Of a stretch of DNA of 64,000 nucleotides, positions 33,653 to 50,396 are shown piece after piece. The position numbers and the translations under genes are program-made. The notes beneath the pieces were generated by a model, which was not told the origin of the DNA, did not search any database, and saw only the letters and a list, made by a program, of their open reading frames with translations. The DNA comes from Escherichia coli. Lineage in GTDB: Bacteria; Pseudomonadota; Gammaproteobacteria; Enterobacterales; Enterobacteriaceae. Numbering within the stretch: the first letter of the stretch is position 1; the number at the start of each line of letters is the position of its first letter. The stretch lies in the NCBI RefSeq assembly GCF_013315695.1, contig NZ_CP054353.1; one strand, 5' to 3'.

Positions 33653-33751
33653 ATATCTGTAATAAGAAATAGCCCTCGCCGCTTCCCTCTACAGGAATGG
33701 CGAAGGGCTGTCGGTTTCGACATGGTTGGCCATCATATGATGGCCTTTTTT
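33653..33751 (+). ncRNA. sdhX: Probable 3'UTR-derived sRNA of the sdh-suc operon (SdhX/RybD-like), ending at the sucD terminator
   Basis: About 100 nt between the sucD stop and a strong terminator (GGCCATCATATGATGGCC + T6, 33728-33751); assignment from memory of the K-12 arrangement, not a sequence alignment. Confidence 0.45.
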
Positions 33752-33857
33752 ATTCGGGCACTAATCTGAAAAGTTTGCCCACTGCTTTTTTTCCCCATCC
33801 TCTGCGCAATAATGCCCGGCGAAATATCTCCTCTCCGTTCTGTAAAAGGATTTATAC

Positions 33858-35051
33858 ATGAAGAAAATTGTTCTGCCGGTTGCTCTGGCCCTGATGGGTA
33901 TAAATGCGGACGTTTATGCGGCCGATGTAAAGATCGATATTTTAAGTGCAACAGTGAAAGATAAACGCATTGAGGGGGCATCGGTGACGCTGCAACGCAA
34001 TGGCGCACAATCTGTTTCTGGCACCACAAATGCCTCGGGCAGCATTAATCTGGGCTCTTCCTTTGCCGATGATCAAGATGCTTTGTTAATCGTCAAAAAA
34101 GAGGGCTATTCTAATCTGGTGGTCAAATGCCCGTGTGCGGGCATGACTTATGCGATTAGTCCGGTAATGACTAGTCTGGATGGCATGCGTGTCGTATTGA
34201 GCTGGGGCGAAAAGCCTTTTGATCTTGATTCGCATTTGATCTTCCCTGGCGGACATATTTATTTTGATAGTAAAGAGGGGACTGATGCCAATCTGGATGT
34301 TGATGATACGGATAGCTATGGACCAGAAACTGTCACTATCAGCAAAAAGCATTTTGGCGAAAGTTACATCTATGCCGTGCAGGACTATAGCAATAAAGGG
34401 TTGCCCAACAGTAATTATCTCTCTGCCAGTAAGGCAAAAGTGTTTGTTTATGTAGGGGGCTCCCTGGTGCGTAGTTATAGTGTCCCTGCTGGAAAACGAG
34501 GGAACATCTGGACCGTGTTTAAACTCAATCCAAACGGCGAGTTTGAAGATATCAACTCTGTTACCACCGCCAATTTTAACGACACCACATTAGGCGTCAG
34601 GGATTTAGCCACTGTGATAATGCCTGCGACGGGTTCTTCAACTCCGGCTTCACCTGCGATGCAAAACAGTGGATATACTCAACTGGCAAGAAAATATAAT
34701 CGTGAAGGCGAAGCTGTTTACAAAACCGGTCAACTTGAGCAAGCCATTCAACTCTTCCAACAGGCAACAGAATTAGACGGCAATTACGGTCAGGCATTTA
34801 GTAACCTGGGTCTGGCTTATCAGAAAAATGGCAACATCGCGGAAGCGATTTGGGCAAATCGTAAAGCGATCTCGTTAGCCAGTGGAGCAAATGCGGCGAC
34901 AACGCGCGCTAACTCCTATTATAACATTGCCAAAATTTATGAAACTGCAGGACAGAACGCTGATGCATTGCAGCATTATCAACTCGCTTATGCGGAAAAA
35001 AATAAGCCCTCTTATGAAGAGGCCATCGCACGGGTAAAAGCGAAAATGTAG
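33858..35051 (+). CDS. Secreted protein with YfaP-like (DUF2135-type) central domain and C-terminal TPR repeats
   Basis: 397 aa; Sec signal peptide MKKIVLPVALALMGINADVYAA; motif LSWGEKPFDLDSHL...DANLDVDDTDSYGPETVTI as in YfaP-family proteins; C-terminal TPR-like repeats (AIQLFQQATELDGNYGQAFSNLGLAYQKNGNIAEAI...). First gene of the island. Confidence 0.7.
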   Translation: MKKIVLPVALALMGINADVYAADVKIDILSATVKDKRIEGASVTLQRNGAQSVSGTTNASGSINLGSSFADDQDALLIVKKEGYSNLVVKCPCAGMTYAISPVMTSLDGMRVVLSWGEKPFDLDSHLIFPGGHIYFDSKEGTDANLDVDDTDSYGPETVTISKKHFGESYIYAVQDYSNKGLPNSNYLSASKAKVFVYVGGSLVRSYSVPAGKRGNIWTVFKLNPNGEFEDINSVTTANFNDTTLGVRDLATVIMPATGSSTPASPAMQNSGYTQLARKYNREGEAVYKTGQLEQAIQLFQQATELDGNYGQAFSNLGLAYQKNGNIAEAIWANRKAISLASGANAATTRANSYYNIAKIYETAGQNADALQHYQLAYAEKNKPSYEEAIARVKAKM

Positions 35052-35428
35052 CGGTTAGCAAACAGGAGGCTATGTGGTGTTAGCCTCCTTACCCCCAGGC
35101 CAGTGGGAATATAGTAATCATCGTTTTTAACATTCAACGTCCAGATTCTGCTTGAGCGTAAAAACAAGTCTTTAGATATTTTATAAATGATGAAGGGCTG
35201 GAAAGTGGTTGATGTCACCGACTCACGATCGTTATCGCCAGCAAAGCTTTTTTGCCATTGCACCAGACGCACCTTCAACCATTTTGGCGACGAATCAACT
35301 GCTACCGCCACCAGGCTTGTTTGCCATTTTCCCGTACCTAATTCGTCGCTTGCCGCACTGTTGGCTGTAATCAATGGCCCAATGCCCAACCAGATACTTC
35401 TATATCCGATTGGGTTTTGTTAATTGCG

Positions 35429-36025
35429 TTACCCCTTAAACGTTAACCTCGGTCGAAATCTGACCGCTGGCTGAATTAATCCGGCTTCTTGTTGGGCTTC
35501 GATAACCGGACCAATATCTTTATAAGCAGCTGGCGCTTCTTCAATACGCCGTTCTTCGCGCAATGTGACGCATTGCCACGGCAACGTTGACTCTGCAGTC
35601 GCGCGTGAGCGCATGGCCTGCCGACGCTGGCTGCGTCCTGCTCCGTGACTGCAAGACCACAGCCACTCCGGGTTGCCGCAACCAACCGCAAGCCAGGAAT
35701 AATCACCCATGGAACCGGGGATTAACGCCAGATCGCCCGCGCGTGCCGGTGTTGTGGCCACCACAGCGCCAACGGGGACGCCATTGCCGGGATGAAAATC
35801 TGGCGTCGCGCACGTCTGGCGCACATAACCTGGGTGGTCTGGTAGCTTCACTTCTGCAAAATCAAGCAGTTGTGTTACTGCTTTTTCTTCCAGCGGCAGT
35901 TCGTCCGGCAGCAGTACGCGGGCACTGGCACCTGATGGACGAGATAATGAAACAATATTGTTGGCGCGGGAAAGTTGGATCCCTTTGCGCAGAAAGGCTT
36001 TATCAAGCCTTGAAAGATGATGCAT
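35429..36025 (-). CDS. Shortened RtcB-like protein (RNA-ligase family motifs, central region absent)
   Basis: 198 aa; N-terminal PDFHPGNGVPVGAV resembles the RtcB PDxHxG metal-binding motif, and the C-terminus (IPGSMG...CSHGAGR...AYKDI...FKG) resembles the RtcB C-terminus, but the motifs are about 50 aa apart instead of about 300. Confidence 0.55.
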   Translation of the reverse strand: MHHLSRLDKAFLRKGIQLSRANNIVSLSRPSGASARVLLPDELPLEEKAVTQLLDFAEVKLPDHPGYVRQTCATPDFHPGNGVPVGAVVATTPARAGDLALIPGSMGDYSWLAVGCGNPEWLWSCSHGAGRSQRRQAMRSRATAESTLPWQCVTLREERRIEEAPAAYKDIGPVIEAQQEAGLIQPAVRFRPRLTFKG

Positions 36026-36614
36026 AACGCTGTCCTGAAATATAGACGTTAAACAACCCCCTGTATTGCGAGGGTAATTTTGTCTTTCCGGTCAGCAGCC
36101 AGCAAAAGGGAAAGAAAACGCGCGTAGTGTATGTGGCGATAGCAAGTTTTACAAGTGGTAAATCTGGCTTATTGTTAAAGAGGAATTATCTTTTGTGAAG
36201 TCTTTTAAGGCCATGACTCATTCAATTTAACCGGACATAGATAATATATAACATAGGGTATATAAATTTATCATTGTATACTTGTCATAATTCAAGTTGC
36301 ATGTGCTGCATCGATGTTCGCTCACCCAGGTCACTTACTTATGTAAGTTTCTGGAAATTCATTATTTGTTCCCTTCCTGCAACTTGACTTATTTAGAGTA
36401 TATTCATGTATATGAATAATATTCTTGCAATAATAGCTTTAAAGTATTGCATGCGGATAACTGAGGTGAAATTCCTGTTTTAGGATTATTGTCACTTTAT
36501 TTTCCTGGTTAGACATATAGCTGACTGGTTTGTTTATTTGAATTATGATATTCATTAGTGCTACTGTTTTTTATAAAATAATTTTTGAATTGTTATTTTT
36601 TCACGGACGGCATT

Positions 36615-37520
36615 ATGCGAGGAAAAATACCTAAAACGGAACTGCTGGTGACTTTTGAGGTCGTCGCACGTCATGAAAGTTATACCAGAGCGGCAGAGGA
36701 GTTAGCGTTAACCCAAAGTGCAGTATTCAGACAAGTAAGTGCGCTGGAGGAATTTTTACATACTCCGTTATTTTCACACTCTAAAAAACGCATTTTTCTT
36801 AATGATGCAGGGAAGTATTACCTGGGGATAGTAAAAGAAACATTAAATAAGCTGGAACGCGATACCAATACCATTATGACCTGGCAGCCTACGGTTCAGG
36901 TTATTGAACTTGCCGTTAATCCTACTTTTAGTACCCACTGGTTAATCCCAAATTTACATGAATTCACAAAGTTACATCCCGATATTATTGTTAATATTCA
37001 TTCTTTAGCTAATAACGGCGACTTTCTTAATCGGGAGTACGATGCTGTCATTATGCGCGAAAATTTTTGCGCGCCCTGGGCGGAAGTAGAGTATCTCTTT
37101 GAAGAGGAGATTTTGCCGGTATGCAGCGGCAGTTTGCTTGCAATGTCCGATCAAAAACTGTCAGTGGCAGAACTGCTTACTGAGTTACCACTTCTGCATC
37201 AAAGCACCCGTATTACTGGCTGGGAAGAGTGGTTTGCTTTATCTGGCGTTAGCAGTCCGCTGGTCAATAACGGACCACGTTTCGATTTGCTTTCAATGCT
37301 GATTGCCGCCGTGCGCTCTAATCTCGGCGTGGCGCTGTTACCACGGTTCGCTATTCAACATGATTTGGATAGTGGCGATATGGTGATTCCCTGTGATGTG
37401 CCTATTCGTACCGGTAATCGTTTTATTATGACGTGGCAGGAAGAGAAGTCTGACTCACCGCACTTGCAGCAATTTCGTGAATGGTTGCTGGCGAAATCGG
37501 TCGTACCGCAGGAGATGTAA
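36615..37520 (+). CDS. LysR-family transcriptional regulator
   Basis: Start chosen at MRGKIPKTELLVTFEVVARHESYTRAAEELALTQSAVFRQVSALEE (N-terminal HTH) followed by a substrate-binding domain; divergent from the RtcB-like ORF and convergent with the cobA-like gene. Confidence 0.8.
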   Translation: MRGKIPKTELLVTFEVVARHESYTRAAEELALTQSAVFRQVSALEEFLHTPLFSHSKKRIFLNDAGKYYLGIVKETLNKLERDTNTIMTWQPTVQVIELAVNPTFSTHWLIPNLHEFTKLHPDIIVNIHSLANNGDFLNREYDAVIMRENFCAPWAEVEYLFEEEILPVCSGSLLAMSDQKLSVAELLTELPLLHQSTRITGWEEWFALSGVSSPLVNNGPRFDLLSMLIAAVRSNLGVALLPRFAIQHDLDSGDMVIPCDVPIRTGNRFIMTWQEEKSDSPHLQQFREWLLAKSVVPQEM

Positions 37521-37553
37521 AACCTGCGCCTGGCGGGATGCCAGGCGCAGTTA

Positions 37554-38156
37554 TTACCAGTCGATACCCGGCTGGGCCTGAATGCCGTTATCAAAAGCAT
37601 GTTTGACGGGGCGGATTTCGCTTACCGTATCCGCCATTTTTAATATCTGACTGTGGCAACCGCGTCCGGTGACAATGACACTTTGTTGTGCCGGGCGGTT
37701 TTGCAGAGAAGCGATCACTTCTTCGGTGTCCAGATAATGGTAAGCCAGCATATAGGTCAGCTCATCAAGCACCACTAAGTCGTAACGCTTGTCAGCCAGC
37801 ATCCGTTTGCTTTCCGACCAGACCTCTTTCGCCGCGTCGATATCCGCTTGCCGGTTCTGTGTCTCCCAGGTAAAACCGGTTCCCATAATATGAAACTCAA
37901 CCCCCAGCGGCTGGAGAAGGTTGTATTCGCCGTTGTCCCATTGCCCCTTGATGTACTGCGCAACCCCCACCGTTTTGCCATGACCCACCGCGCGCGTCAC
38001 AGTACCAAACGCGGCAGTGGATTTCCCTTTGCCGTTGCCGGTGAAAACAATCAAGATCCCTTTTTTCTCTATCGCCGCCGCGACGCGCGTATCGACCTGT
38101 TCCTTCAATTTCTGCTGGCGCTGCACATGCCGTTCAGTTGAAATTCGCGCTTCCAT
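37554..38156 (-). CDS. Cob(I)alamin adenosyltransferase (BtuR/CobA family paralog)
   Basis: 200 aa; P-loop GNGKGKSTAA and overall strong similarity to BtuR as recalled (...VFTGNGKGK.TAAFG...RAVGHGK.VGV.Q.IKG.W.NGE...); probably supplies adenosylcobalamin for glutamate mutase. Confidence 0.85.
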   Translation of the reverse strand: MEARISTERHVQRQQKLKEQVDTRVAAAIEKKGILIVFTGNGKGKSTAAFGTVTRAVGHGKTVGVAQYIKGQWDNGEYNLLQPLGVEFHIMGTGFTWETQNRQADIDAAKEVWSESKRMLADKRYDLVVLDELTYMLAYHYLDTEEVIASLQNRPAQQSVIVTGRGCHSQILKMADTVSEIRPVKHAFDNGIQAQPGIDW

Positions 38157-38165
38157 TCATTTTCC

Positions 38166-39818
38166 TTAATGTCCCGCAGGGCAACTGGCGCAGCGGTGTT
38201 TCTGCTCAAACTGACTAAAGAAATTATTGCCTTTATCATCTACCAGGATGAATGCGGGTAAATTTTCCACTTCCATCATCCACACCGCTTCCATACCCAG
38301 CTCCGGGTATTCCAGGCAACGCAGACTTTTGACATATTCTTGCGCCAGTAACGCAGCTGCACCGCCAATACTTCCCAGATTGAAGCCGCCATGTTTGTGA
38401 CAGGCATCGGTGACCTGCTGGCTGCGGTTACCTTTCGATAACATCACCAGACTGCCGCCAGCCGCCTGGAAGGTATCGACATAACCGTCCATTCGACCGC
38501 CCGTGGTTGGACCCAGTGAACCGCAGGCCATGTTCTCCGGTGTTTTCGCCGGGCCAGCGTAATAGACAATATGATGCTTCAGGTAATCCGGCATCGGTTC
38601 GCCGCTATCCAGCCGCGCTTTTATTTTGGCGTGGGCGATATCGCGCGCCACTACGATGGGACCACTTAACGACACGCGGGTGCCTACCGGTAATCTGGCG
38701 AGATCCTGCATCACGTCACGCAACGGACGATTTAGATCCAGCTGTACATGTTGCGCGTGATTTTCTTCCCGCAGTGAGGCTGGAATATATTGCCCCGGAT
38801 TGTGTTCGAGTTTTTCCAGCCAGATACCGTGCTTGTTAATTTTTGCTTTGATATTGCGATCCGCAGAACAGGAGAGCGTCATAGCTATCGGGCAAGAGCC
38901 ACCGTGACGCGGCAGACGAATGACGCGAATATCATGAGCGAAATATTTACCCCCAAATTGCGCACCAATACCAAATTGCTGACTGGCCTCGAGCAATACT
39001 TTTTCCAGCTCAATATCACGGAATGCTTGTCCTTGCTCGTTTCCGCTGGTGGGCAAATTGTCGTAATATTTCGTTGAGGCCAGCTTGGCAACTTTTAAGG
39101 TTTGATCGGCTGAAAGCCCTCCGACGACAAAGGCGATGTGGTAAGGCGGGCAGGCAGCGGTGCCCAGCGATTTCATTTTTTCGATTAAAAATGCGGTCAG
39201 TTTTTCTGGTTGCAATAGGGATTGGGTTTCCTGATAAAGCGCGGCTTTATTGGCAGAGCCGCCCCCTTTATTAATACAGAGAAAATGGTACTCATCACCA
39301 GCGACGGCGCTGATATCAATCTGCGCCGGGAGATTGGTTTGCGTATTGACTTCGGTAAACATATCCAGTGGCGCATTTTGTGAAAAGCGCAGATTATTTT
39401 CCTGAAAAGTGGTGTAAATGCCTTTGCTTAAGGCTTCAGCGTCGTTACCTCCGGTCCATATCTGTTGCCCTTTACTGGCAACAATAGTTGCGGTGCCGGT
39501 ATCCTGACAGTTGGGTAATACCCCTTTTGCTGAGACTTCAGCATTACGTAATAACTGCAACGCAACGTATTTATCATTACTACTGGCGTGCGGATCGTTA
39601 AGAATGCTGGCGACCTGTTGCAAATGAGCGGAACGTAAGAAAAAAGAGGCTTCATAAAATGCCTGCCGGGCAAGCAGCGTTAATGCTTCAGGAGCGATTT
39701 TTATCACTTCTTCGCCGTCTAATTCCGTTACTGTAATATGTTGATCGCTAATTAATGTATATTCTGTACCGTCTTTATTTTGTAGAAACGGTTCTTGCCA
39801 GATAAATGGTTTGGACAT
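38166..39818 (-). CDS. fumD: Class I (Fe-S) fumarate hydratase paralog; mesaconase/fumarase
   Basis: 550 aa, collinear with FumA/FumB ([11 protein letters not shown]...[12 protein letters not shown]...[14 protein letters not shown]...[13 protein letters not shown]...). I recall a mesaconase named FumD from an E. coli O157:H7 glutamate-mutase cluster; symbol given on that basis. Confidence 0.88.
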
Positions 39819-39925
39819 ATTTCACTTTTCACCTTAAACGTTAGTTTTACTTAATTGCCGTCTAACTTCATGATCCGGCTTATAAAAATGCGTAGTCATT
39901 GGCTTCTGATTGCTTAAGATCCCCC

Positions 39926-41206
39926 TCAGGGCAGAGCAACGTTCGATTCATTGGGTTTTAATGCTTTACCCCGACAGCCCTCGCCGAAATGTTCGCCTTC
40001 CCACCGACTCACCATCGCAGCGCCCATTGCGTTGCTCATGACGTTTGTCGCGGAACGCCCCATATCAAGGAACGGATCAACGCCCATCAGCAAGATCAGC
40101 CCCGCTTCCGGAATATTGAACTGGTTGAGCGTGGCGGCGATAACCACCATTGAGGCGCGTGGTACGCCAGCCATTCCTTTCGAGGTCAACATCAGGATCA
40201 ACAGCATGGTGATTTGCTCACCGATGGATAAATGGATATTGCAGGCCTGGGCGATGAAAACTGTGGCGAAGGAGCAGTAGGCCATTGATCCAACGAGATT
40301 AAATGAGTAGCCAATGGGTAAGACAAAGCTGGCAATTTTGGGGGAAACGCCAAATTGCTCCAGTTTTTCAAGCGTTCCCGGAAAAGCCGCTTCAGAACTG
40401 GATGTGGTAAATGCCAGCAGGGCGGGTTCCGAAAGGGCACGGGTCAGGCGTCTGATGCAGGGGCCGACATAAACGATGGCCAGACCGATAAGCAGCACCC
40501 AAAGTAACAACATGGTGAAATAAAATTCACCCATAAAGATCCCGGCGCTCACCATAACTGCCAGTCCTCGTTCAGCAATCAATGCTGAAATAGCGGCGAA
40601 TACGGTCAGGGGAGCGAAGAGCATGACGTAGCCAGTGAGCTTTAACATGGCATGTGCCAGCGAATCTAAGGCGTGAACGATGGCGCTGCCTTTCTCACCA
40701 ATCGCCGTCAGGCTACAGCCGAGGAAAATTGAGAACACCACGATTTGCAAAATTTCATTGTGCGCCATGGCATCGACAATGCTGGTGGGGAAAGCATGCG
40801 AAATAAATACTTTTAGTGTAAAGGGTTCTGACGCGACCACTCCGGTGGTTTCGGCACCGTGTGCAACAAAATTAATTCCTGTGCCTGGCATGAAGAAATT
40901 TACCGTTATCAAGCCTAAGGCAATTGACAGCAATGAGGCGCAAATAAATAAAAAGAGTGTTTTAGAAAAAATACGACCAAGGGCTTTGGCATCTCCCATT
41001 TTAGCTATACCTACCACCAGGGTAGAGACCACTAACGGAGCGATAATCATTTTTATCAGTCGTAAGAAAATCGTCGTGAATATCGATATTTCTTGCGCAT
41101 AGAGTTTTGCGGTTTCCGGTGAAGCAGTGTTATTGAGCACTACGCCGATAATCATTCCAAGTACCAGCGCCAAAAGAATCATCGTGGTTAAACTTATTTT
41201 CTTCAT
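39926..41206 (-). CDS. Dicarboxylate/amino acid:cation symporter (DAACS; GltP/DctA-like)
   Basis: Start at MKKISLTTMILLALVLG (ATG 41206, GGAGG RBS); polytopic membrane protein with DAACS-type conserved segments; substrate (glutamate, mesaconate or citramalate) is not decidable from sequence. Confidence 0.85.
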   Translation of the reverse strand: MKKISLTTMILLALVLGMIIGVVLNNTASPETAKLYAQEISIFTTIFLRLIKMIIAPLVVSTLVVGIAKMGDAKALGRIFSKTLFLFICASLLSIALGLITVNFFMPGTGINFVAHGAETTGVVASEPFTLKVFISHAFPTSIVDAMAHNEILQIVVFSIFLGCSLTAIGEKGSAIVHALDSLAHAMLKLTGYVMLFAPLTVFAAISALIAERGLAVMVSAGIFMGEFYFTMLLLWVLLIGLAIVYVGPCIRRLTRALSEPALLAFTTSSSEAAFPGTLEKLEQFGVSPKIASFVLPIGYSFNLVGSMAYCSFATVFIAQACNIHLSIGEQITMLLILMLTSKGMAGVPRASMVVIAATLNQFNIPEAGLILLMGVDPFLDMGRSATNVMSNAMGAAMVSRWEGEHFGEGCRGKALKPNESNVALP

Positions 41207-41366
41207 TTTTTCCTCCATCAGGTGCACGGCGATAAATCAGAATCAGGAGAAGTAGATGCCTGAATAGAGATTCAGGCATCTACCTGCTATTACAACCTTA
41301 CAAATAGCTGAAGTGTTGAACTGCAATAAGTGACGGGATGTCAGTTGGCTAAAAGTATTCGGATTT

Positions 41367-41684
41367 TTACAAATCGAAACTCATATTTAATAAAGGTGCA
41401 TGTTGCTGTGCACCATAGACATCATTGTCACCTACATTCCCGGAGATAATATCTCGTGGCATGACGATTTTTACTGCGTTAGAAGGATCAAACCAGACAA
41501 TACGGTGAATAAAGTCAGGTTCAACATGATATAAGCGCGCAATCAGTTCTGGGGTTAATTGCCCTGATGATTTAACTCGCTCATAGTTTTCTTTCGTTTT
41601 AAATAAAATATCTAAAACCAGTTCGTAAGGTCCGGCATTTTTCGAACGAATGACTTGCGCCAGTGAGACAATTGACTGTTTCAT
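41367..41684 (-). CDS. Small conserved protein, DUF4387-like partner of the AtuA-like protein
   Basis: 105 aa; start overlaps the stop of the upstream DUF1446 ORF by 4 nt (translational coupling); family assignment from memory. Confidence 0.55.
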   Translation of the reverse strand: MKQSIVSLAQVIRSKNAGPYELVLDILFKTKENYERVKSSGQLTPELIARLYHVEPDFIHRIVWFDPSNAVKIVMPRDIISGNVGDNDVYGAQQHAPLLNMSFDL

Positions 41685-43051: not shown

Positions 43052-43054
43052 TTG

Positions 43055-44296
43055 TTAATCCTTAGCCTGCAACAGCGCGATAGTACGATTCATTTCGTTG
43101 AAGACGATATCGAGGCCTTCGTCAAAGCCCATCCCTGGCTTTACCAGCATACGCATAGGGCGAGCGGCAAGGGCGACGTGGACACAGGTGCGGGCACTGA
43201 CATCAGTTTCATTGCAGGTGCCGCCCTGGTACGCTTCCATGCTGTGGCTGTTGCAGTAAAGAACCGCATCGACGATGTTGTGAATACTGCCCAGATCCGG
43301 GGTTTTGATTTGCACCATGTGACAACTGGCGGCATCAGTGAAATCAACAATATCCTGGTAGGTGTTACACCATTCATCGGCCACAATTTTCACGCCGGAA
43401 CCGAGGCGCGTCAGCTCTTTGGTAATCGCGGTCAGCAGGCGAATTTGATCGGGCTTGTTACCGGCATCGACCGGCCCTTCAATGTAGAGCGGCAGGCCTT
43501 GCGCTTCTTTTTCCAGGCTGGCGATGTATTGCGCACAGCGAAGCGGATCCATATCGAAGATCAGGCCGATAGTGCCGTATACATCGATGTGCAGGGTTGG
43601 GTGGTAGCGTGCGCTGGTGCGCTTGCTCAGAATACGATCCGACAGCCAGCGGACATATTCGCGCAGTTTTTCACCTTTAAAGCCCAGTTTCTCTTCGACG
43701 TTATTAATCAGTGCATGGGGCAGCACGTCGATGCCCTTAAGGATCATCTTATCGACGGCGATATATCGATCGTCCCCGCTCTGACCAAATAATGGAATGG
43801 ATTCCGCCACGCGTGGCAACTGCCATTCATCACAGACCACTTCAGTTTTCAGACGGCCGGTTGCCAGCGCGGTAGCATCAAGCAGCGCCTGTGATAATCC
43901 GTAGCGCACGGCGGTATGCAGCAAGTTGCCGTCAATACGCAATTTGTCGAAGAAACGGGCATTCGGCAGGAAAGCATCCACATCGCGGCCTATCAGTAAT
44001 GGCTTGATATGGTCGTTGAGGAACGGAATAAAGTGCTCAGCGAGGAACAGTGGATCGCGACCACCTGCCCCGGAATACTGTACGGCAGCACAGTCACCTA
44101 CGGCGACCGCGCCGTTTTCCAGAATCAACTGTACCGATACGCACTCCCCGGCCTGACGAACGGCGTTAAACCCCTGTGTTACCGGCTCCCCGGTATAAAA
44201 AAAGCCGTCATGACCCGCTCCGTTTTTTATCGCCTGCTGGTCATCGAAATAGAATGAGGAGTAGCCAGCAGTGAACAGAGCCTGTTTTATTTTCAT
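43055..44296 (-). CDS. 3-methylaspartate ammonia-lyase (beta-methylaspartase)
   Basis: 413 aa; very close to clostridial MAL as recalled: ...YFDDQ.AIK.GAGHDGF.YTG...AVQYSGAGGRDPLFLA...QSGDDRY..VDKMI.K..DVLPHALINNVEEKLG.KGEKL...HMVQIKTPDLG...GGTCNET. Confidence 0.92.
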   Translation of the reverse strand: MKIKQALFTAGYSSFYFDDQQAIKNGAGHDGFFYTGEPVTQGFNAVRQAGECVSVQLILENGAVAVGDCAAVQYSGAGGRDPLFLAEHFIPFLNDHIKPLLIGRDVDAFLPNARFFDKLRIDGNLLHTAVRYGLSQALLDATALATGRLKTEVVCDEWQLPRVAESIPLFGQSGDDRYIAVDKMILKGIDVLPHALINNVEEKLGFKGEKLREYVRWLSDRILSKRTSARYHPTLHIDVYGTIGLIFDMDPLRCAQYIASLEKEAQGLPLYIEGPVDAGNKPDQIRLLTAITKELTRLGSGVKIVADEWCNTYQDIVDFTDAASCHMVQIKTPDLGSIHNIVDAVLYCNSHSMEAYQGGTCNETDVSARTCVHVALAARPMRMLVKPGMGFDEGLDIVFNEMNRTIALLQAKD

Positions 44297-45741
44297 TATG
44301 GTCTTCCTATTAATTTACTGTGGGATACAGCATTGATGTCATCTACAACCATCTGGAATGTCGGTTGGCGTCCTTCAAAGCGTGCGCGTTCCGCAACGTA
44401 ATCGTGGTGGAGGTCGAGAATATCTTTTGGCAATGGAACGGCTCCGGCTTCCAGTACGCGTATCGCGCCGGTGTTGTCACGGACCGGAAGAATTTTGCCC
44501 GCGTTGCAGGCGGCTGGCGCAAACGGCACATCCAGTACGCCCGCTTCAAATGCCAGCACCGTACCGCGCGCAATATCACCATTACCCAGTTCGAACACTT
44601 TATTCAGTACCGCGTGAACCTCGCTCTTAATCAGTTCAATTTCCAGTTCAACCGCAGGGCACGGCGGGAATTTCTGCTCGTTGACCATGTTGAGCATCTG
44701 GCGGGAGGCTTTCAGCCCCTGAATGTTGGCAGCGGCAGTCGGGATGCCCCAGGCTTCGTGCGGACTTTTGGTGATGACTTTGGTGGCACCAGACATCCCC
44801 GCGACGGCTGCGCCCCAGGAGATAATAGCGAACGCTTTCGATTCGTCTTCCGGAAAGCCGCCCATCCACTGGTGAAACACGGTACTTAATTCATAGTCGG
44901 TATAGCCATAGCTCTGAAAATATTCGTGTGCAAGTTCACGCAGAGACTGGATCGCCGCAACATCCTGCGTCAGGCTGCCGACCTGTCCATAACCAACGGT
45001 GATAGATTTCACACCCTGTTCCAGCGCCAGTAATCCTTCGATTATCGCGATAGAGTGCGAGATAAACGGCGGGATCAGGGTACCCGTTAGTGGGCCAAAC
45101 GGTTCGCGGTTGATGCGGATCCCGTGTTCTTCATACATCCCCATTAAACGGTCGCAGTACTGCCAGTCGCGGATCGATTTTTCCAGCGTTACGCGCTTGG
45201 CATACGGAATGTTGTAGGAAATGCCGCCGCCTTCATAACTGGTAAAGCCGCTGGCCATCGAGATTTCAGCCAGCAGACGCGCATCTGGCGTGCCGTGGCG
45301 GATCTGTAGCGGTTTTTGCAAAGTTTCGGTGAGGCGACGGCAAGCTGCGACGCCGTGGTTAACGACCGGTAAACCGTTCAGTTTAGAGGTTCCGGCTTCG
45401 ATGGATTTTTTAATCCCTACAGCCGCTTCTTCGTACCGATTCAGACGGGTATATGCGTCGATGGTGCTCGGCAGCAGATCGCATTCTTCTTGTAGTGTTT
45501 TCAGTAGTTCGATGTGTTCGTCCATCAGCGCCACGCCTGCGCGCGGTTGGCTAAGAGTTTTACCTTCCTTGTCTGCTTTCAGCAGGGCAAGAGAGAAGCG
45601 TTTATGCTCAGGAATGGTTTGTTGGTATTTAACGCCATCTTCAAAGTTTTCAACATCCTTGCCGGTTTCCCAGGTTTTCAGTACCTGTTGCCGCTCGGTC
45701 ATGAATTCGTCATGGGTTAATTTCTTATTTCGAAGTTCCAT
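44296..45741 (-). CDS. Glutamate mutase epsilon (E, catalytic) subunit
   Basis: 481 aa; collinear with clostridial GlmE/MutE (MELRNKK...QPRAGVAL.DEHIELL...LPSTIDAYTR.NRYE...GTPD.RLLAEI...EGGGISYN.PYAK...FQMV.DDI.AV). Confidence 0.92.
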   Translation of the reverse strand: MELRNKKLTHDEFMTERQQVLKTWETGKDVENFEDGVKYQQTIPEHKRFSLALLKADKEGKTLSQPRAGVALMDEHIELLKTLQEECDLLPSTIDAYTRLNRYEEAAVGIKKSIEAGTSKLNGLPVVNHGVAACRRLTETLQKPLQIRHGTPDARLLAEISMASGFTSYEGGGISYNIPYAKRVTLEKSIRDWQYCDRLMGMYEEHGIRINREPFGPLTGTLIPPFISHSIAIIEGLLALEQGVKSITVGYGQVGSLTQDVAAIQSLRELAHEYFQSYGYTDYELSTVFHQWMGGFPEDESKAFAIISWGAAVAGMSGATKVITKSPHEAWGIPTAAANIQGLKASRQMLNMVNEQKFPPCPAVELEIELIKSEVHAVLNKVFELGNGDIARGTVLAFEAGVLDVPFAPAACNAGKILPVRDNTGAIRVLEAGAVPLPKDILDLHHDYVAERARFEGRQPTFQMVVDDINAVSHSKLIGRP

Positions 45742-45759
45742 TGATTGCAGCCTTAATTG

Positions 45760-47148
45760 TTATAGGGTTAAGCATTGAATACTGGTGCGCGCGGCGGCCA
45801 GCGGATCGACTCTGGCGACGTTTGCCAGCAGTGGTAATAGCCCCCGGGAATCGCGGTAATATTCAAATTCGGTCGGTAAGAGAATGCGTTTACCGTCGTC
45901 GTTTAACTCGCGGTATTTCAACCAGTGATGCATATCGAACTGACTGGCACGCGAGAGCCATCCGCCGGATCCGACGACTTTACGCACGGTTGTCAGGTCA
46001 CGTCCCATCTGTAAATCGACATTGCCGACGCAGGTGCAGACCTCTTTTTTGGTGCCCGCATGTCTTTCGGTGGCATAACCCACACACAGTCCGGCCAGGA
46101 CTGTATCGAAATATTTTTCTTCTGCATTCGCGGGTAAGTAGTCGGGATGAGCGACTAGATGACGGAGGTAATGATAAAAAGCGTCCAGCTGTGCGGGTTG
46201 CTGAGCAAAATTCACATTGACTAACTCTTTCGCACTTTCACCAACCACCATTGCCGAGACGCGCATTCCCAGATCGCCTTCCACCGTCCGTTTCACGAAG
46301 GGTTCCGGTACGCCGTGTAAAACGGTGTCGGGCGAGAGCGTGTTGGCACAGGCGGAATAGACATCGGTGGTTGCGCCACCCATGTCGATCAGTATGAACT
46401 CTTTCCAGCTGTGATCGACATTACTGATTGCCTTAACCAGTTCAAAGACTGTCCACGGTGTCGGCATTGGTTCTTCGCCTGTTTTATCAACAACGACATC
46501 CAGCCCTTTCCCTTTAACGATGCGTTTAAGGAATATGTCGCAGATAGCCTGGCGTGCAGCTAAAGGGTTCGGATGGTCAAGATCGGGCAGAACGTTGTCG
46601 ACGATGGTCAGGTCTTTATGCCCTAGGATCTCCTGCACCTCGTCCTGAATATCCCGGTTTCCGGCATAAATAATGGCGCAGTCGAGTTTGGATTCTGCCA
46701 GCACACGGGCGTTATTCAGGCCGTAGCTTTCTTCTCCGCCGTCGGTGCCGCCGGTGAACAAGAGAATATCGGGCTGCGTTTCTTCCAGTGCCTGGATATC
46801 ACGGCGGTTCAGCTTGTAGGAGTAATATTGCGCAATTTTAGCCCCCGCAGAGTGAGCGGTTACTTTCGCGGTTTCCAGGGTGATAGAAGGCACCAATCCC
46901 ATTGCGGCAACCGCCAGCCCACCTTTGGCAGAGGAGGAATACTTCAATGCAACCTCACCGTTGTTAAACAGGGGGAGGGTATTATCTACGTTTAACACCA
47001 GGTTCAGGCTGGAGAAAAACCCCTTCGCCAGATGATGGGTGGTGGTTGGGGTCAGTACGTGGTTAACCAACGTTAACGCGTCCCCCTCCCGGGCGAAGAG
47101 GGCTGCTTTGGTCCACGTCGATCCAATATCGACAGAGACGATTTGCAT
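45760..47148 (-). CDS. Glutamate mutase-associated protein L (GlmL/MutL-type putative chaperone or reactivase)
   Basis: 462 aa; N-terminal [18 protein letters not shown] (ASKHA/actin-like ATPase start); sits between the S and E subunit genes as in clostridial mutS-mutL-mutE. Confidence 0.8.
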   Translation of the reverse strand: MQIVSVDIGSTWTKAALFAREGDALTLVNHVLTPTTTHHLAKGFFSSLNLVLNVDNTLPLFNNGEVALKYSSSAKGGLAVAAMGLVPSITLETAKVTAHSAGAKIAQYYSYKLNRRDIQALEETQPDILLFTGGTDGGEESYGLNNARVLAESKLDCAIIYAGNRDIQDEVQEILGHKDLTIVDNVLPDLDHPNPLAARQAICDIFLKRIVKGKGLDVVVDKTGEEPMPTPWTVFELVKAISNVDHSWKEFILIDMGGATTDVYSACANTLSPDTVLHGVPEPFVKRTVEGDLGMRVSAMVVGESAKELVNVNFAQQPAQLDAFYHYLRHLVAHPDYLPANAEEKYFDTVLAGLCVGYATERHAGTKKEVCTCVGNVDLQMGRDLTTVRKVVGSGGWLSRASQFDMHHWLKYRELNDDGKRILLPTEFEYYRDSRGLLPLLANVARVDPLAAARTSIQCLTL

Positions 47149-47597
47149 CAGATTGCCTCTTCAAGAATACGAGTATCAACGTCATGACGTTGGTTGATAT
47201 CGTGTGCCATCAGCTGACAAACATCTTCTAAGTCATGACTTGGGGCAAAGACGCGATCAAATCCCATCTCTTTGAATTTGGTTTCCACGTCAGCGAAGTC
47301 ATGTTTTCCGACCACCAGGTTACCGCCCACATAGAGCAGGATGTCCCCCAGTCCACGCTCGATGCAGCGTTCGCGCATGCCCAGACAGTCGATATCGCCA
47401 TGCCCATAGATAGAGGAGACGACAATCGCGTCAGCGCCAGTTTCAATGGCCGCATCAATATATTCGTCCTGGCTGACCATTACGCCCAGATTAATGACTC
47501 TGAAGCCATGGTTGCTAAAAACGCGGTCCAGAACTTTATTGCCTACTGCATGGCAGTCCGCGCCAATAACGCCAATCACAAGTGTTGCTTTCTTCAT
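47148..47597 (-). CDS. Glutamate mutase sigma (S, B12-binding) subunit
   Basis: Start at ATG 47597 ([27 protein letters not shown]...), 149 aa; B12-binding DxHxxG motif; AAGGA RBS. Track ORF with the longer N-terminus is rejected. Confidence 0.9.
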
Positions 47598-48143
47598 GGG
47601 TAATCCTTTGTAAGACAGAGAGTAAAATAAGTTACACACGTCGTATTTATGGCCGTTCATAACGGCACAGGTTTAATATCACAGGAGTGTCTTTATCTGA
47701 CCGTAATGTTGCAATTGATCTATTTTCAAAATGTCTTTCGGGAAATGATTGTTTAAAGTATGTTGTTAAATTCTCATGTTAATTCAGTGTGTTATGTCAA
47801 CTAATGTCATGAATGTTAAATTTTTAAAATTAACTTGATTTGGTGTATTGAGGTATTTGTGATCTACTTCTAATTTGCATTTTAGTGATATGGGTTTAGC
47901 CATGAGTAAATGCATTTCATAAAATTTAAGTCGAATTTCACTGCAATTCATCTCTGCTTAATGTAAAAATAATGTTGAAAATAACAAATGGTTAATGATT
48001 CATGCGAATTATGACCTTAGTTAGCTCTTTTGATTTTTCGTAAAAAAGAGAGGTACATGAAGGTGCTACCAGTATGAGTAACGTTAATCAAAGGTTTTAT
48101 TACGTCTGGCAATAACGCAGGCCATTTTCGCGACTGGGTGGAT

Positions 48144-48566
48144 TTAATCAGTATAATCCTCATACAATAGTTCACGATTAACTGAACCGTTAACGGGGAT
48201 TTGGTGTTGAAATTTAGAAATGGCGGAGTCAATTAATGAAGACAATATCGAAAAAATGACAGTGTCAGAATTAATTTCAATTAATCCTTCTCGTTGTTGA
48301 CCAAAAAAGATATTTATCTTGATTTCATTTGTACTACGGCAATCAATATGTAGTAATTTTTGATCGCTGAGATTTTCTGTTTCATAAATGTTTTTGGCGA
48401 TAGTCGGATGTATTGATGCCAGACATCTGCTCAGATAAGCCAGATCCTTTAGGGAACACCCCGCTGAGTAGAGGATGTCAGAGAATTTTTGTGTGTTAAC
48501 TGTTGTCTCTGAAGCGTATGTTGCATTGACAGGAAGGGTGTTGAAAGAGATTTGAGATGGGAGCAT
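48144..48566 (-). CDS. Hypothetical protein (low-GC, no recognisable domain)
   Basis: 140 aa ORF 80 bp downstream of the 314-aa ORF on the same strand; no signal peptide or TM helix apparent. Confidence 0.4.
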   Translation of the reverse strand: MLPSQISFNTLPVNATYASETTVNTQKFSDILYSAGCSLKDLAYLSRCLASIHPTIAKNIYETENLSDQKLLHIDCRSTNEIKINIFFGQQREGLIEINSDTVIFSILSSLIDSAISKFQHQIPVNGSVNRELLYEDYTD

Positions 48567-48646
48567 TATTTAAATCTTTCCGTGAGTAATAAAAATTAAT
48601 CCCCGGGCATTGTTTAGCAATATTTGCCACAGGTAATATATAAAAA

Positions 48647-49591
48647 TTAAAGTATTTGATTGGCATCGGTTAACTGATCAATAACCAGTGCCAGATTGGT
48701 AAACATTTTGAAAAAGCGATACTGGCTCGGAATATCTCTTTCAAAGACGAAACATTCAATGTCATTGTTTGAAAAATAAAGGACTAGTGTTGCTGATTCG
48801 TCAGGAAAAATATGGAAATATATCTGGTTACCAGAAGGAGGATAGTCCAGAAGAAGGGTATCTTTGCCCGTCACATACCTGTTGTGGTCGTGGATGCTGC
48901 GCTCACACTTCATCAGAGGTGTCATGATACTCATGTATTCATCTGATGTTAATATATTAAAATCACCATCCATTTTAAAGAAACGATAAAGTAACAGTAC
49001 ATCCTCTTGCGTAACCGGTTCGTTTGTTTTTAGAGGGAAATAAGTGGGAACCAGAAGATGAGGTTCTAATCTATTTTGTTGAGCGCTATAACTAAATTTG
49101 AACATAAATTCCGGATCGCTCATCAATTGAGCGACATAATTATGCCTGGCTTCAAAAATTTTAACTTTTATCAGGTTAAATAAGTCTGTTTCGTCATCCT
49201 GTATTAAAAGACATTGGCCATAGCAGCCAGGCTTTTTTTCATTATAAGCAGAAACGGTTATTCTGTCAGGAGTGTCAACGTTATATCCAAAAGCCAGATA
49301 GTGACCGTCCTCATCGAGATTTGTTTCCAGGTTATTTAAATTTATCACATGAAGTGTTTGCAATGCTGATTCAATGAGCTGTTGACTCTCTGAGGTAAAT
49401 GTTTCGCGCTGCGTTGTATAAAGTGTATCGATTCCAACGACTATCCGATATGGGTCAAGGATGGCGGCAATCATCTTTATTACCTGCACAGCCACGGGTG
49501 ATGTCATTGATTCGTTATCTGTTTTTAGAGGATCATTAGATGGCCAACCTGAGAAGCGATTGACAGCCGAACCGATATTATCAGGACTCAT
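48647..49591 (-). CDS. Hypothetical protein (low-GC, no recognisable domain)
   Basis: 314 aa ORF in a strongly AT-rich stretch (roughly 38-40 percent GC by eye); acidic, apparently soluble; no family recognised. Confidence 0.5.
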   Translation of the reverse strand: MSPDNIGSAVNRFSGWPSNDPLKTDNESMTSPVAVQVIKMIAAILDPYRIVVGIDTLYTTQRETFTSESQQLIESALQTLHVINLNNLETNLDEDGHYLAFGYNVDTPDRITVSAYNEKKPGCYGQCLLIQDDETDLFNLIKVKIFEARHNYVAQLMSDPEFMFKFSYSAQQNRLEPHLLVPTYFPLKTNEPVTQEDVLLLYRFFKMDGDFNILTSDEYMSIMTPLMKCERSIHDHNRYVTGKDTLLLDYPPSGNQIYFHIFPDESATLVLYFSNNDIECFVFERDIPSQYRFFKMFTNLALVIDQLTDANQIL

Positions 49592-50045
49592 AGCAGCAAC
49601 CTCATTGTAATCAAGCGAGGCGCTGAGCGTACTCGGCTATAGAAAAACTAACTTGCAAAAATCGCTCATTTTTCATTTATCAGGCGAAAGTGGTCTCTGT
49701 TCACTCAGAAACAATCACTCCCGCTAAGTCATACCTGTTTCATCGATACACTTAAGTGATTATTACTAATGAAACAATAACATAACGGGCTTACGGCCGG
49801 TGCTCATAAAGGCAACAATCAATTAACTTTGATAAAAATATGTTATGTAAAATAGCAACAAATTGGCTAATCTAATCAATTGGTATTATAAAAAGTGGAT
49901 AAGGCGGTTCTGTTAAATAAAACACTGGTTTTTTATCTATACCTTTTCATTGTAATAATTGTGTTGCATAAATATTTCACAATAAATTAACAATAAAATC
50001 ACCAATGATCTATGGTTTATACATAATTAACATATTTGGTTGGTT

Positions 50046-50059
50046 TTGATATAAATCAA
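50046..50059. promoter_or_regulatory. FNR-type box (TTGAT-N4-ATCAA) in the cydAB upstream region
   Basis: Perfect palindrome TTGATATAAATCAA about 340 bp upstream of cydA; a second half-matched site TTGATCACTGTCGAA lies near 50150. Confidence 0.5.
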
Positions 50060-50396
50060 TTTTTAATTCTTGAAAAAAATCTGCAAAACACGATAAATTG
50101 TCGTAGATCAAATTGGTGAGATCGTGACAATTTCGCTATAAATTGATCACTGTCGAAAAATGCAAATTTGCTCAATAAAAACCTGTTTATTGTAAGGATT
50201 TTGCGGCGTAATATAATTACGGGATCAATTTGGTTTATTCATTAACATATTTGTAACTTTTTTATCATTGTCTTTTCCTCTTTTGATGAAATGGCAACGA
50301 TAGAGGCGAGCAAATAATTTTGTATTGGGGCATGCGTGTGACCCTTTCTAACGGGGTTCACTCTCGGAGTCTTCATGCGATGAGCAAGGAGTCATG

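Follow-up and report, generated by a model that had tools for sequence, protein, structure and literature searches.

Clostridia (Clostridium tetanomorphum, C. cochlearium and C. tetani) convert glutamate to pyruvate and acetate through methylaspartate, relying on MesAB, a mesaconase of two subunits, and on a citramalate lyase complex of the CitDEF type that has CitCXG as maturation genes (PMC4682846); in the haloarchaeal methylaspartate cycle, mesaconate is activated to mesaconyl-CoA via Mct and Mch (PMC4682846). The closest described system is the FumD cluster of Escherichia coli O157:H7 (Kronen & Berg, 2015, PLoS One, PMC4682846). In that work the activity of FumD was measured, the citramalate-cleaving step was not located, and it was proposed that citramalate might serve as an effector. 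The O157:H7 strain did not grow on glutamate, showed no methylaspartate ammonia-lyase (MAL) activity and yielded no inducing condition, and because of these null results the function of the cluster in E. coli itself is unproven. A preprint (10.64898/2026.01.16.699985) states, and makes use of, a citramalate lyase activity of CmlAB and reports that FumD and CmlAB alone permit engineered E. coli to grow on mesaconate.

Here we analyzed 64,000 nt of E. coli DNA (the window), in which the interval between sucD and cydA carries this already known cluster of previously described enzymes: genes and gene order are identical to those of O157:H7, the proteins are 98–100% identical, and the sucD–cydA neighbourhood is alike. 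The first-pass annotation had named FumD and the gene set as reported for O157:H7 and considered the core enzymes probably not new, and the published cluster bears out both statements. We put at roughly 85% the probability that the interval holds a complete, intact enterobacterial methylaspartate-pathway cluster for glutamate catabolism, with a route ending in pyruvate and acetate. Its GlmS, GlmE, GlmL and MAL are homologous to the clostridial proteins and the chemistry would be alike, but the island encodes FumD, a fused class I fumarase, and an unrelated CmlAB, and neither NCBIfam models nor the RefSeq annotation revealed a CitDEF homologue in the interval. Glutamate mutase and MAL are also common to the haloarchaeal cycle, whereas the interval contains no CoA-transferase or hydratase genes and has mesaconase and lyase in their place.

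A mosaic interval between sucD and cydA

Homology to K-12 (blastn) stops at 33751, directly past the sdhX terminator, and restarts at 50021, leaving 33752–50020 without a counterpart in K-12. The sdhX terminator is accordingly the left border of the variable interval. The final 373 nt ahead of cydA are the cydA promoter region common to K-12 and the present strain; thus, of the limits first proposed for the island (33752–50393), the left one stands and the right one does not. The interval contains neither an integrase or transposase gene nor a tRNA or flanking repeat, in line with the first-pass annotation, and mngRAB was found nowhere in the window. That the island lies where K-12 carries mngR-mngAB holds for the present strain but not as an account of the island's origin: strain XJ6.1 has the order sucD-mngR-mngAB-rtcB-island-cydA, and since XJ6.1 and other strains hold both, allelic replacement of mngRAB by the island was rejected.

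In the present strain mngRAB is instead replaced by a separate 1.67-kb module (33754–35427) of a TPR gene and a small ORF, complete in only 5 of 5,426 genomes; in strain EC9682 the TPR gene is the sole occupant between sucD and cydA. Next to it lies an rtcB remnant in which an in-frame deletion of 792 bp joins residues 1–91 to 359–465 of a protein that has 465 aa in other strains, and which is probably inactive. This left flank, together with an XJ6.1-type region upstream of LysR, differs from that of O157:H7, where rtcB is reduced to scraps and the ~450 bp preceding LysR are of unrelated sequence. At the other end are two low-GC orphan ORFs. The 140-aa ORF has no match in NCBIfam, PADLOC or Pfam, is restricted to Escherichia and missing from non-Escherichia loci, and has a pN/pS of 0.2–0.4; the 314-aa ORF is matched by only five protein clusters among 5.8 billion proteins and, judged by a pN/pS of ~0.6, is under relaxed constraint. 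The interval is thus a mosaic, with the TPR gene and small ORF, the rtcB remnant and both orphan ORFs outside the conserved pathway cluster.

Table 1. Features of the sucD–cydA interval and the evidence for each
Feature	Position	Strand	Evidence
sdhX terminator hairpin (sucD 3'UTR small RNA)	33728..33745	+	terminator scan; K-12 sdhX annotation at homologous position; blastn boundaries
TPR-repeat protein, signal-peptide-like N-terminus	33894..35051	+	RefSeq annotation of identical strain; weak TPR matches only
RtcB-family gene remnant	35429..36025	-	blastn vs XJ6.1; BLASTP; NCBIfam partial match
LysR-type transcriptional regulator, GcvA-like subfamily	36615..37520	+	NF008352, 221 bits (NCBIfam)
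Hairpin, 11 bp, 9 G-C	37524..37550	.	terminator scan; inverted repeat
cobO, CobA-type cob(I)yrinic acid a,c-diamide / cob(I)alamin adenosyltransferase	37554..38156	-	NF004637, 296 bits (cut-off 185), full length; TIGR00708, 247 bits
fumD, class I (Fe-S) fumarase paralogue, promiscuous mesaconase	38166..39818	-	NF011921, 1279 bits (cut-off 1060), full length (NCBIfam); O157:H7 identity
DAACS-family dicarboxylate/amino acid:cation symporter	39926..41206	-	DctA model 314 bits, GltP model 304 bits, each under its cut-off
cmlB (DUF4387), small subunit of citramalate lyase	41367..41684	-	Pfam PF14330, E 3e-39; PDB 9erq_B
cmlA (DUF1446/AtuA family), large subunit of citramalate lyase	41681..43051	-	Pfam AtuA/DUF1446, E 1e-18; PDB 9erq_A/9evf_A
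mal, 3-methylaspartate ammonia-lyase (methylaspartate to mesaconate + NH3)	43055..44296	-	TIGR01502, 544 bits (cut-off 286), full length; PDB 1KKO
glmE, catalytic (epsilon) subunit of glutamate mutase	44296..45741	-	TIGR01503, 864 bits (cut-off 390), full length; PDB
glmL (= mutL), glutamate mutase accessory/reactivating protein	45760..47148	-	NF040745, 509 bits (cut-off 475); TIGR01319, 884 bits (NCBIfam, full length)
glmS, B12-binding (sigma) subunit of glutamate mutase	47148..47597	-	NF002612, 253 bits (cut-off 110), full length (NCBIfam)
19-nt element TTGAAAATAGATCAATTGC	47711..47729	-	alignment, exact-match and mismatch scans
Second conserved upstream block, CRP-like site TTAGAAGTAGATCACA	47858..47873	-	alignment; pattern scan
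Orphan ORF, 140 aa, ~36% GC	48144..48566	-	no family match
Orphan ORF, 314 aa, ~37% GC	48647..49591	-	no family match

Nine intact genes for a proposed route from glutamate to pyruvate and acetate

Nine minus-strand genes, glmS-glmL-glmE-mal-DUF1446-DUF4387-DAACS transporter-fumD-cobO, form an intact unit without frameshifts, disruption by which had been raised at the outset; the ORFs are situated as in the first-pass annotation. Each is preceded by a Shine-Dalgarno sequence, and the spacings from glmS to cobO are -1, 18, -1, 3, -4, 160, 107 and 9 nt (cmlB and cmlA overlap by 4 nt), so that the tight abutting or overlapping first noted is seen from glmS to cmlB. The nine genes are probably a single transcription unit, and the strong hairpin between the LysR and cobO stop codons is probably a bidirectional terminator at its end.

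Glutamate mutase S, L and E, MAL, fumarase and CobO all gave full-length matches to curated NCBIfam models above cut-off, and family models likewise agree with the transporter, FumD-like mesaconase, adenosyltransferase, nearby LysR and DUF1446/DUF4387-like ORFs of the first-pass annotation (Table 1). GlmS carries the DxHxxG motif (D14-C-H16-A-V-G19); membership of an unrelated family, in particular a methylmalonyl-CoA mutase fragment, was rejected, as the C-terminal domain model of that enzyme scored only 52 bits against 253 for NF002612. GlmE matches the solved glutamate mutase (PDB 6H9E/1CCW) with 635 bits, and MAL matches Citrobacter amalonaticus MAL (PDB 1KKO) with an E value of 5e-270 and keeps all catalytic residues (Q172, H194, D238, E273, D307, Q329, K331 and C361). 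The fumarase paralogue was tried as FumA and as FumB, and both models fell under their cut-offs; it is 98% identical to O157:H7 FumD, from whose published activity we take it that FumD of the present strain hydrates mesaconate to (S)-citramalate. CobO is 100% identical to the O157:H7 protein and is predicted to supply the adenosylcobalamin cofactor of glutamate mutase. The symporter gene comes after cmlB in almost every Enterobacterales locus and presumably serves glutamate uptake, although its about equal scores on the DctA and GltP models weigh against this; Kronen & Berg named it GltP, and their Fig. 5 puts a glutaminase gene at the position where, in many loci, an insert of ~1–1.4 kb separates transporter and fumD (PMC4682846).

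The DUF1446/DUF4387 pair had been described as poorly characterised, a description that no longer applies. The larger protein matches 9erq_A/9evf_A with an E value of 9e-293 and ~91% identity across 456/456 residues, its AF2 model superposes on 9EVF ('Citramalate lyase - ADP - pyruvate complex') with a TM of 0.94, and the smaller matches 9erq_B ('Citramalate lyase, subunit B (cmlB)') with an E value of 5e-57 over 104 residues. PDB entries 9ERQ and 9EVF, released 2025-10-08, are CmlA/CmlB of Raoultella planticola, a different genus with the same two-gene arrangement and a like fold, to which E. coli CmlAB was compared by sequence and model. By this resemblance a function can now be assigned to the pair, which corresponds to a named enzyme, citramalate lyase CmlA/CmlB, predicted from the PDB molecule names, the entry title and the usage of one preprint to cleave (S)-citramalate to pyruvate and acetate. 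The ADP bound in 9EVF, for which we can offer no role, was counted against that reading.

Conservation and a candidate operator

Among 5,426 complete E. coli genomes, 1,135 carry the core operon (21%, similar to the 26.5% in PMC4682846), and 1,121 genomes have at least 80% of its sequence. The order glmS-glmL-glmE-mal-cmlA-cmlB is kept in 50 of 55 glmS-bearing loci across Enterobacterales, Rhodocyclales, Firmicutes and Dictyoglomaceae. Core pN/pS values of 0.00–0.20 against O157 and 0.04–0.11 against a distant Escherichia indicate purifying selection; against XJ6.1 they are higher for GlmL (0.71) and FumD (0.29). B12-biosynthesis genes immediately precede the cluster in Yersinia, Budvicia and Morganella, which fits B12 dependence; no cobalamin riboswitch is present, which counts against the proposed reading.

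The LysR gene, convergent with cobO, has a pN/pS of 0.04–0.11, accompanies the cluster in Escherichia, Citrobacter, Klebsiella, Salmonella, Enterobacter, Buttiauxella and Yersinia, and in Aromatoleum and Azoarcus has a divergent orientation relative to glmS, making it a candidate regulator of the operon. The 19-nt element, 114–132 nt upstream of the glmS ATG, has a TGA-N7-TCA core forming a T-N11-A dyad. It is invariant across 10 aligned loci of 7 genera, in an alignment with a mean column identity of 61%, is exact in 34 loci, and occurs once in the window even when 3 mismatches are allowed (chance expectation 0.01); Yersinia and Budvicia hold variants. This dyad may be the LysR operator and is the one result of our analysis that may be new. 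The evidence for the link is mixed, as the box occurs in Budvicia and strain B14 with LysR missing from the surrounding 10 kb, and the E. coli LysR gene is not divergent from glmS. The putative CRP-like site has 2 mismatches to TGTGA-N6-TCACA, with the TCACA half invariant in the aligned sequences.

Alternative readings of the cluster

The cluster might chiefly serve C5-dicarboxylates taken up from outside (mesaconate, methylaspartate or citramalate, supplied for instance by other gut microbes) and imported by the DAACS protein in place of glutamate. The slightly better score of the transporter on the C4-dicarboxylate model DctA than on GltP (both sub-cut-off), the lack of growth stimulation by glutamate (Kronen & Berg, PMC4682846) and the sufficiency of FumD and CmlAB for growth of engineered E. 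coli on mesaconate (10.64898/2026.01.16.699985) point this way. However, glutamate mutase, its reactivase and a dedicated adenosyltransferase lie in the same unit with low pN/pS and would be pointless unless glutamate were the entry substrate, and the insert of many loci sits at the glutaminase position; we regard this reading as unlikely.

That the island is silent and decaying in E. coli, a leftover of horizontal transfer without present function, would accord with the fact that E. coli is not known to synthesise B12, with the eroding neighbours (the rtcB deletion, the loss of mngRAB and the high pN/pS of the 314-aa ORF) and with the failure to elicit expression or activity in O157:H7 (PMC4682846). 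Yet the nine genes and LysR have kept their full length here, most of the core is kept in over a thousand genomes, pN/pS is at most 0.2 against O157 and a distant Escherichia (the GlmL and FumD values against XJ6.1 excepted), and the candidate operator is invariant, all of which makes decay very improbable. Finally, the pathway could stop at (S)-citramalate, secreted as an effector, with the DUF pair unrelated to it. O157:H7 extracts indeed lacked citramalate lyase activity, but the cluster was unexpressed in those cells (PMC4682846), and the pair is translationally coupled to mal and closely resembles a solved, pyruvate-bound enzyme named citramalate lyase, so we give this reading hardly any credence.

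A proposed redox-neutral pathway dependent on external corrinoid

We infer from the genes how a glutamate-degrading cluster would work in E. coli in vivo. Transcription would begin downstream of the dyad, to which LysR is proposed to bind, from a promoter that depends on an activator, and would stop at the terminal hairpin. Glutamate would enter through the symporter, and glutamate mutase (GlmS and GlmE), which requires adenosylcobalamin, would convert L-glutamate to (2S,3S)-3-methylaspartate, with GlmL maintaining its activity and CobO adenosylating imported corrinoid. To our knowledge, E. coli is incapable of de novo B12 synthesis, and the pathway would therefore rely on external corrinoid. 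MAL would then strip ammonia from methylaspartate to give mesaconate, FumD would hydrate this to (S)-citramalate, and CmlAB would split citramalate into pyruvate and acetate. The route first proposed, from glutamate through methylaspartate and mesaconate to citramalate, thus stands as far as it goes but not in its endpoint: CmlAB would fill the step missing in Kronen & Berg (2015), making the encoded route one from glutamate to pyruvate, acetate and NH3. Overall, glutamate + H2O would yield NH3 + pyruvate + acetate in a redox-neutral conversion, and, judging from what is established about the physiology of E. coli, ATP could afterwards be gained anaerobically through pyruvate formate-lyase and Pta-AckA.

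Gene content of the sucD-cydA island

The products of glmS, glmL, glmE, mal, the class I fumarase gene and cobO gave end-to-end matches to NCBIfam equivalog or subfamily models, all above the curated cut-offs, and these matches uphold the glutamate mutase, methylaspartate ammonia-lyase (MAL), FumD-like and CobO assignments that a first-pass annotation had made from the sequence. GlmS scored 253 bits against the methylaspartate-mutase S model NF002612 (cut-off 110) and only 52 bits against the methylmalonyl-CoA mutase C-terminal domain, so that a reading of these genes as methylmalonyl-CoA mutase fragments fails; its DxHxxG motif is present as D14-x-H16-x-x-G19. GlmE reached 864 bits against TIGR01503 (cut-off 390) and 635 bits against the solved glutamate mutase (PDB 6H9E/1CCW). 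MAL scored 544 bits against TIGR01502 and gave an ungapped alignment to the Citrobacter amalonaticus enzyme 1KKO (E 5e-270). Its active site is intact, with 8/8 residues kept of those that we take, from MAL structures, to be catalytic or metal-binding. The fumarase matched NF011921, the third enterobacterial class I model, at 1279 bits (cut-off 1060), fell short of the cut-offs set for FumA and FumB, and shares 98% identity with FumD of O157:H7.

The nine genes lie between cydA and the terminator of sdhX that follows sucD. From glmS to cobO the intergenic distances are -1, 18, -1, 3, -4, 160, 107 and 9 nt, and a Shine-Dalgarno sequence is present at all nine operon genes. No frameshift was found in any island gene, and a disrupted operon, which had been considered earlier, is thereby excluded. 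Furthermore, an 18-kb query spanning sucD-cydA (33000-51000) was 100% identical to strain MSB1_4I. The accessory set, comprising GlmL, a GltP-like transporter, a CobA-type adenosyltransferase and a LysR-type regulator, is as in the cluster described by Kronen and Berg (2015; PMC4682846).

Features of the sucD-cydA interval (window positions)
Feature	Coordinates	Strand	Remark
sdhX small RNA	33653-33753	+	sucD 3'UTR
TPR module	33754-35427		1.67 kb
rtcB remnant	35429-36025	-	
LysR regulator gene	36615-37520	+	convergent with cobO
hairpin	37524-37550		strong; separates LysR gene and cobO
cobO	37554-38156	-	
fumD (class I fumarase)	38166-39818	-	
DAACS symporter	39926-41206	-	
cmlB (DUF4387 gene)	41367-41684	-	
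cmlA (DUF1446/AtuA gene)	41681-43051	-	
mal	43055-44296	-	
glmE	44296-45741	-	
glmL	45760-47148	-	
glmS	47148-47597	-	
19-nt dyad	47711-47729		candidate operator
CRP-like block	47858-47873	-	
hyp140	48144-48566	-	140 aa
hyp314	48647-49591	-	314 aa

The DUF1446 and DUF4387 genes are predicted to encode a citramalate lyase

The first-pass annotation had placed the DUF1446- and DUF4387-like genes among poorly characterised accessories, a view that is now outdated, as matches to PDB entries 9ERQ and 9EVF identify the pair as CmlAB. Along its full length (residues 1-456 of 456) the DUF1446 product matched 9erq_A/9evf_A, 'Citramalate lyase, subunit A (cmlA)', with about 91% identity (E 9e-293), and the DUF4387 product matched 9erq_B, 'subunit B (cmlB)', with an E-value of 5e-57; de novo function prediction for the two as unknowns was dropped after this match. 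An AlphaFold model of CmlA (pLDDT 85.6) superposed on 9EVF in Foldseek with a TM of 0.94, whereas all other PDB folds gave TM 0.2 or less. cmlB lies directly downstream of cmlA with a 4-nt overlap, and the pair is kept in all loci that reach beyond cmlA. In contrast to the clostridial CitDEF-type citramalate lyase, with its CitD acyl-carrier, CitE beta and CitF alpha subunits and CitCXG maturation genes, no CitD, CitE, CitF or CitCXG ORF is found between 33752 and 50020.

A nucleotide is unexpected in a simple aldol-type lyase; the solved CmlAB complex 9EVF, released 2025-10-08 under the title 'Citramalate lyase - ADP - pyruvate complex', has ADP beside pyruvate. The cleavage of (S)-citramalate to pyruvate and acetate is stated only for the R. 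planticola CmlAB (10.64898/2026.01.16.699985), and citramalate cleavage by CmlAB is also implied by the PDB titles of 9ERQ and 9EVF. Kronen and Berg (2015; PMC4682846) characterised FumD and described the cluster, but did not find a citramalate lyase and called the fate of (S)-citramalate unclear. By homology, CmlAB would fill this gap, and the encoded route would therefore run through to pyruvate and acetate: glutamate would be converted to 3-methylaspartate, mesaconate and (S)-citramalate before cleavage, with adenosylcobalamin supplied by CobO and the mutase maintained by GlmL. The island is confirmed and the pathway reading proposed for it at first pass is supported, with two corrections, the naming of the DUF pair as CmlAB and the relation of the island to mngRAB.

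The operon core is widespread and appears to be under selection

The core operon is present in 1,135 of 5,426 complete E. coli genomes, in 1,121 of them at a coverage of at least 80%. A scan for CmlA with one genome per species returned 61 loci, and a tblastn matrix showed the order glmS-glmL-glmE-mal-cmlA-cmlB in the enterics Escherichia, Citrobacter, Klebsiella, Raoultella, Salmonella arizonae/diarizonae, Enterobacter, Lelliottia, Buttiauxella, Yersinia, Morganella, Hafnia and Budvicia, as well as in Aromatoleum, Azoarcus, Telmatospirillum, Desulfotomaculum, a Clostridiales MAG and Dictyoglomaceae; the exception is a Bacillota MAG (L057), where mal follows cmlB. The transporter, fumD, cobO and the LysR gene are enterobacterial additions to this core. 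Cluster proteins 98-100% identical to those of E. coli were also seen in MAGs labelled 'Collinsella sp.' (L005) and 'Citrobacter sp.' (L004), contigs that are most likely mis-binned E. coli. As to plasmid carriage, the only convincing case found was a 416-kb megaplasmid of Salmonella Macclesfield (H46, NZ_CP022118.1), whose glmS-cmlB operon shows 80% identity; of three E. coli 'plasmid' matches, two were chromosome-sized records.

Genes of cobalamin biosynthesis stand immediately ahead of the glm-mal-cml operon in Budvicia, Yersinia and Morganella (L038 1367-4812; L041 3241-4926; L042 4034-4738), namely those for uroporphyrinogen-III methyltransferase, CobD, a GHMP-type kinase and a CysG-N-like precorrin-2 dehydrogenase. 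In place of such genes the E. coli island carries only the adenosyltransferase gene cobO, and E. coli is not known to make B12 de novo.

Compared with O157:H7, pN/pS of the nine genes and the LysR gene was 0.00-0.20, and compared with one divergent Escherichia it was 0.04-0.11, with FumD and the transporter unscored there owing to gapped alignments. Values against strain XJ6.1 were higher for GlmL (0.71) and FumD (0.29), at low divergence. Selection thus seems to preserve the genes of the pathway, even though their induction in E. coli has yet to be achieved.

The sucD-cydA interval is a mosaic

Homology to K-12 ends at 33751 and restarts at 50021, 373 nt before the cydA ATG. Of the island limits first drawn, 33752-50393, the start was correct and the end was not, since K-12 homology has already returned at 50021. 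K-12 carries mngR-mngAB and 475 bp of unique sequence at this position, and mngRAB is indeed missing from its site in the window, as had been pointed out; however, the island is not a replacement of mngRAB, as strain XJ6.1 has both, in the order sucD-mngR-mngAB-rtcB (465 aa)-LysR-...-cydA. O157:H7 lacks mngRAB and nearly all of rtcB, and strain EC9682 has the TPR gene alone between sucD and cydA. The position of mngRAB in the window is taken by the TPR module, followed by an rtcB gene that has lost 792 bp in frame, so that residues 1-91 of the 465-aa XJ6.1 protein run directly into residues 359-465; at the junction the aligned segments share a 9-nt overlap (35746-35754). RefSeq labels this remnant 'RNA-splicing ligase RtcB' and not a pseudogene. 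The sdhX small RNA is conserved here, and is annotated at the homologous position in K-12.

At least five arrangements of the interval were seen: mngRAB only; mngRAB, rtcB and island; island only; TPR only; and TPR, rtcB remnant and island. The last, that of the window, was confined to 5 of the 5,426 complete genomes and looks like a recombinant of TPR-type and island-type alleles. An integrase-type island or other mobile-element origin was rejected: annotation and detection revealed no integrase, transposase, tRNA or attachment site, or flanking repeats, which bears out the earlier remark on this point. There are no repeats at the island junctions, and the sole direct repeat, an imperfect pair of 19 nt, is internal.

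Directly upstream of glmS, and on its strand, two orphan ORFs of about 36% GC, hyp140 and hyp314, had no Pfam or NCBIfam match. For hyp314 only five matching protein clusters were found in 5.8 billion proteins, and its pN/pS is about 0.6. The TPR gene and both low-GC ORFs are restricted to Escherichia. A defence-system identity of the TPR gene, hyp125, hyp140 and hyp314 was dismissed on zero PADLOC matches; hyp140 and hyp314 could be H-NS-silenced cargo.

A conserved dyad upstream of glmS is a candidate LysR operator

The regions upstream of glmS from ten loci in seven genera were aligned, with a mean column identity of 61%. Within this alignment the 19-nt block TTGAAAATAGATCAATTGC, which in E. 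coli precedes the ATG by 114-132 nt, was invariant; it is exact in 34 loci and has no second match in the 64-kb window when three mismatches are allowed (0.01 expected by chance). Yersinia and Budvicia have the variant CTGAyAATAwATCAATTG. The core of the block, TGA-N7-TCA, forms a dyad of the T-N11-A type that is classical for LysR-family boxes. The LysR gene co-occurs with the cluster in most loci, and Morganella and Hafnia have neither the box nor a nearby LysR gene. In Budvicia and strain B14 the box occurs with no LysR gene within 10 kb, so that a link between dyad and LysR is no more than plausible. No further copy of the 19-mer was found before the transporter, fumD or LysR genes at up to three mismatches; a weak two-mismatch match to the core lies near the LysR start (36591-36603).

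FNR and CRP fit the dyad poorly. As TTGA-N7-TCAA it differs from the FNR site TTGAT-N4-ATCAA, and no FNR match with two or fewer mismatches occurs upstream of glmS; its spacing is also unsuitable for CRP. A second conserved upstream block is CRP-like: its right half, TAGATCACA, matches a CRP half-site perfectly, and its left half only weakly. This block lies about 145 nt upstream of the dyad, too far for a standard class I/II CRP position at the inferred promoter. Across 32500-51000, cmscan in E-value mode reported no Rfam RNA at E of 1 or below, cobalamin riboswitches included, in a search that likewise left the conserved sdhX unreported.

Kronen and Berg could not induce the cluster in O157:H7 (PMC4682846), and a literature search for inducing conditions returned nothing past that study. 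The DNA ahead of the LysR gene in O157:H7 (compared over L065 8684-9230), where about 450 bp of unrelated sequence lie, does not resemble that of the window (36026-36596) or of XJ6.1; homology between O157:H7 and the window starts only 18 nt before the LysR ATG. Lineages may thus express LysR differently, and the unrelated upstream sequence might be relevant to the lack of induction in those experiments. We tentatively propose, with a probability of roughly 0.3, that the dyad serves as the operator through which LysR would activate all nine genes once an effector specific to the pathway is present, and that strain differences in the LysR promoter would explain the apparent silence of the operon in E. 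coli. If so, the strains in which glutamate fermentation is inducible would be those with an XJ6.1-type or window-type LysR region.

Altogether, the system is already described, by Kronen and Berg and by the CmlAB structures of 2025, and the literature and the PDB now cover essentially all of its enzymology. Possibly new here are the candidate operator and the differences between strains in the sequence upstream of LysR, which we offer as a modest, inferred lead on expression and not as a discovery. Glutamate is abundant in the gut. On textbook E. coli metabolism the net reaction would be redox-neutral, and PFL and Pta-AckA could draw on it to make ATP. A B12-dependent, redox-neutral glutamate route could add an anaerobic source of carbon, nitrogen and energy in about one fifth of E. 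coli strains, O157:H7 among them.
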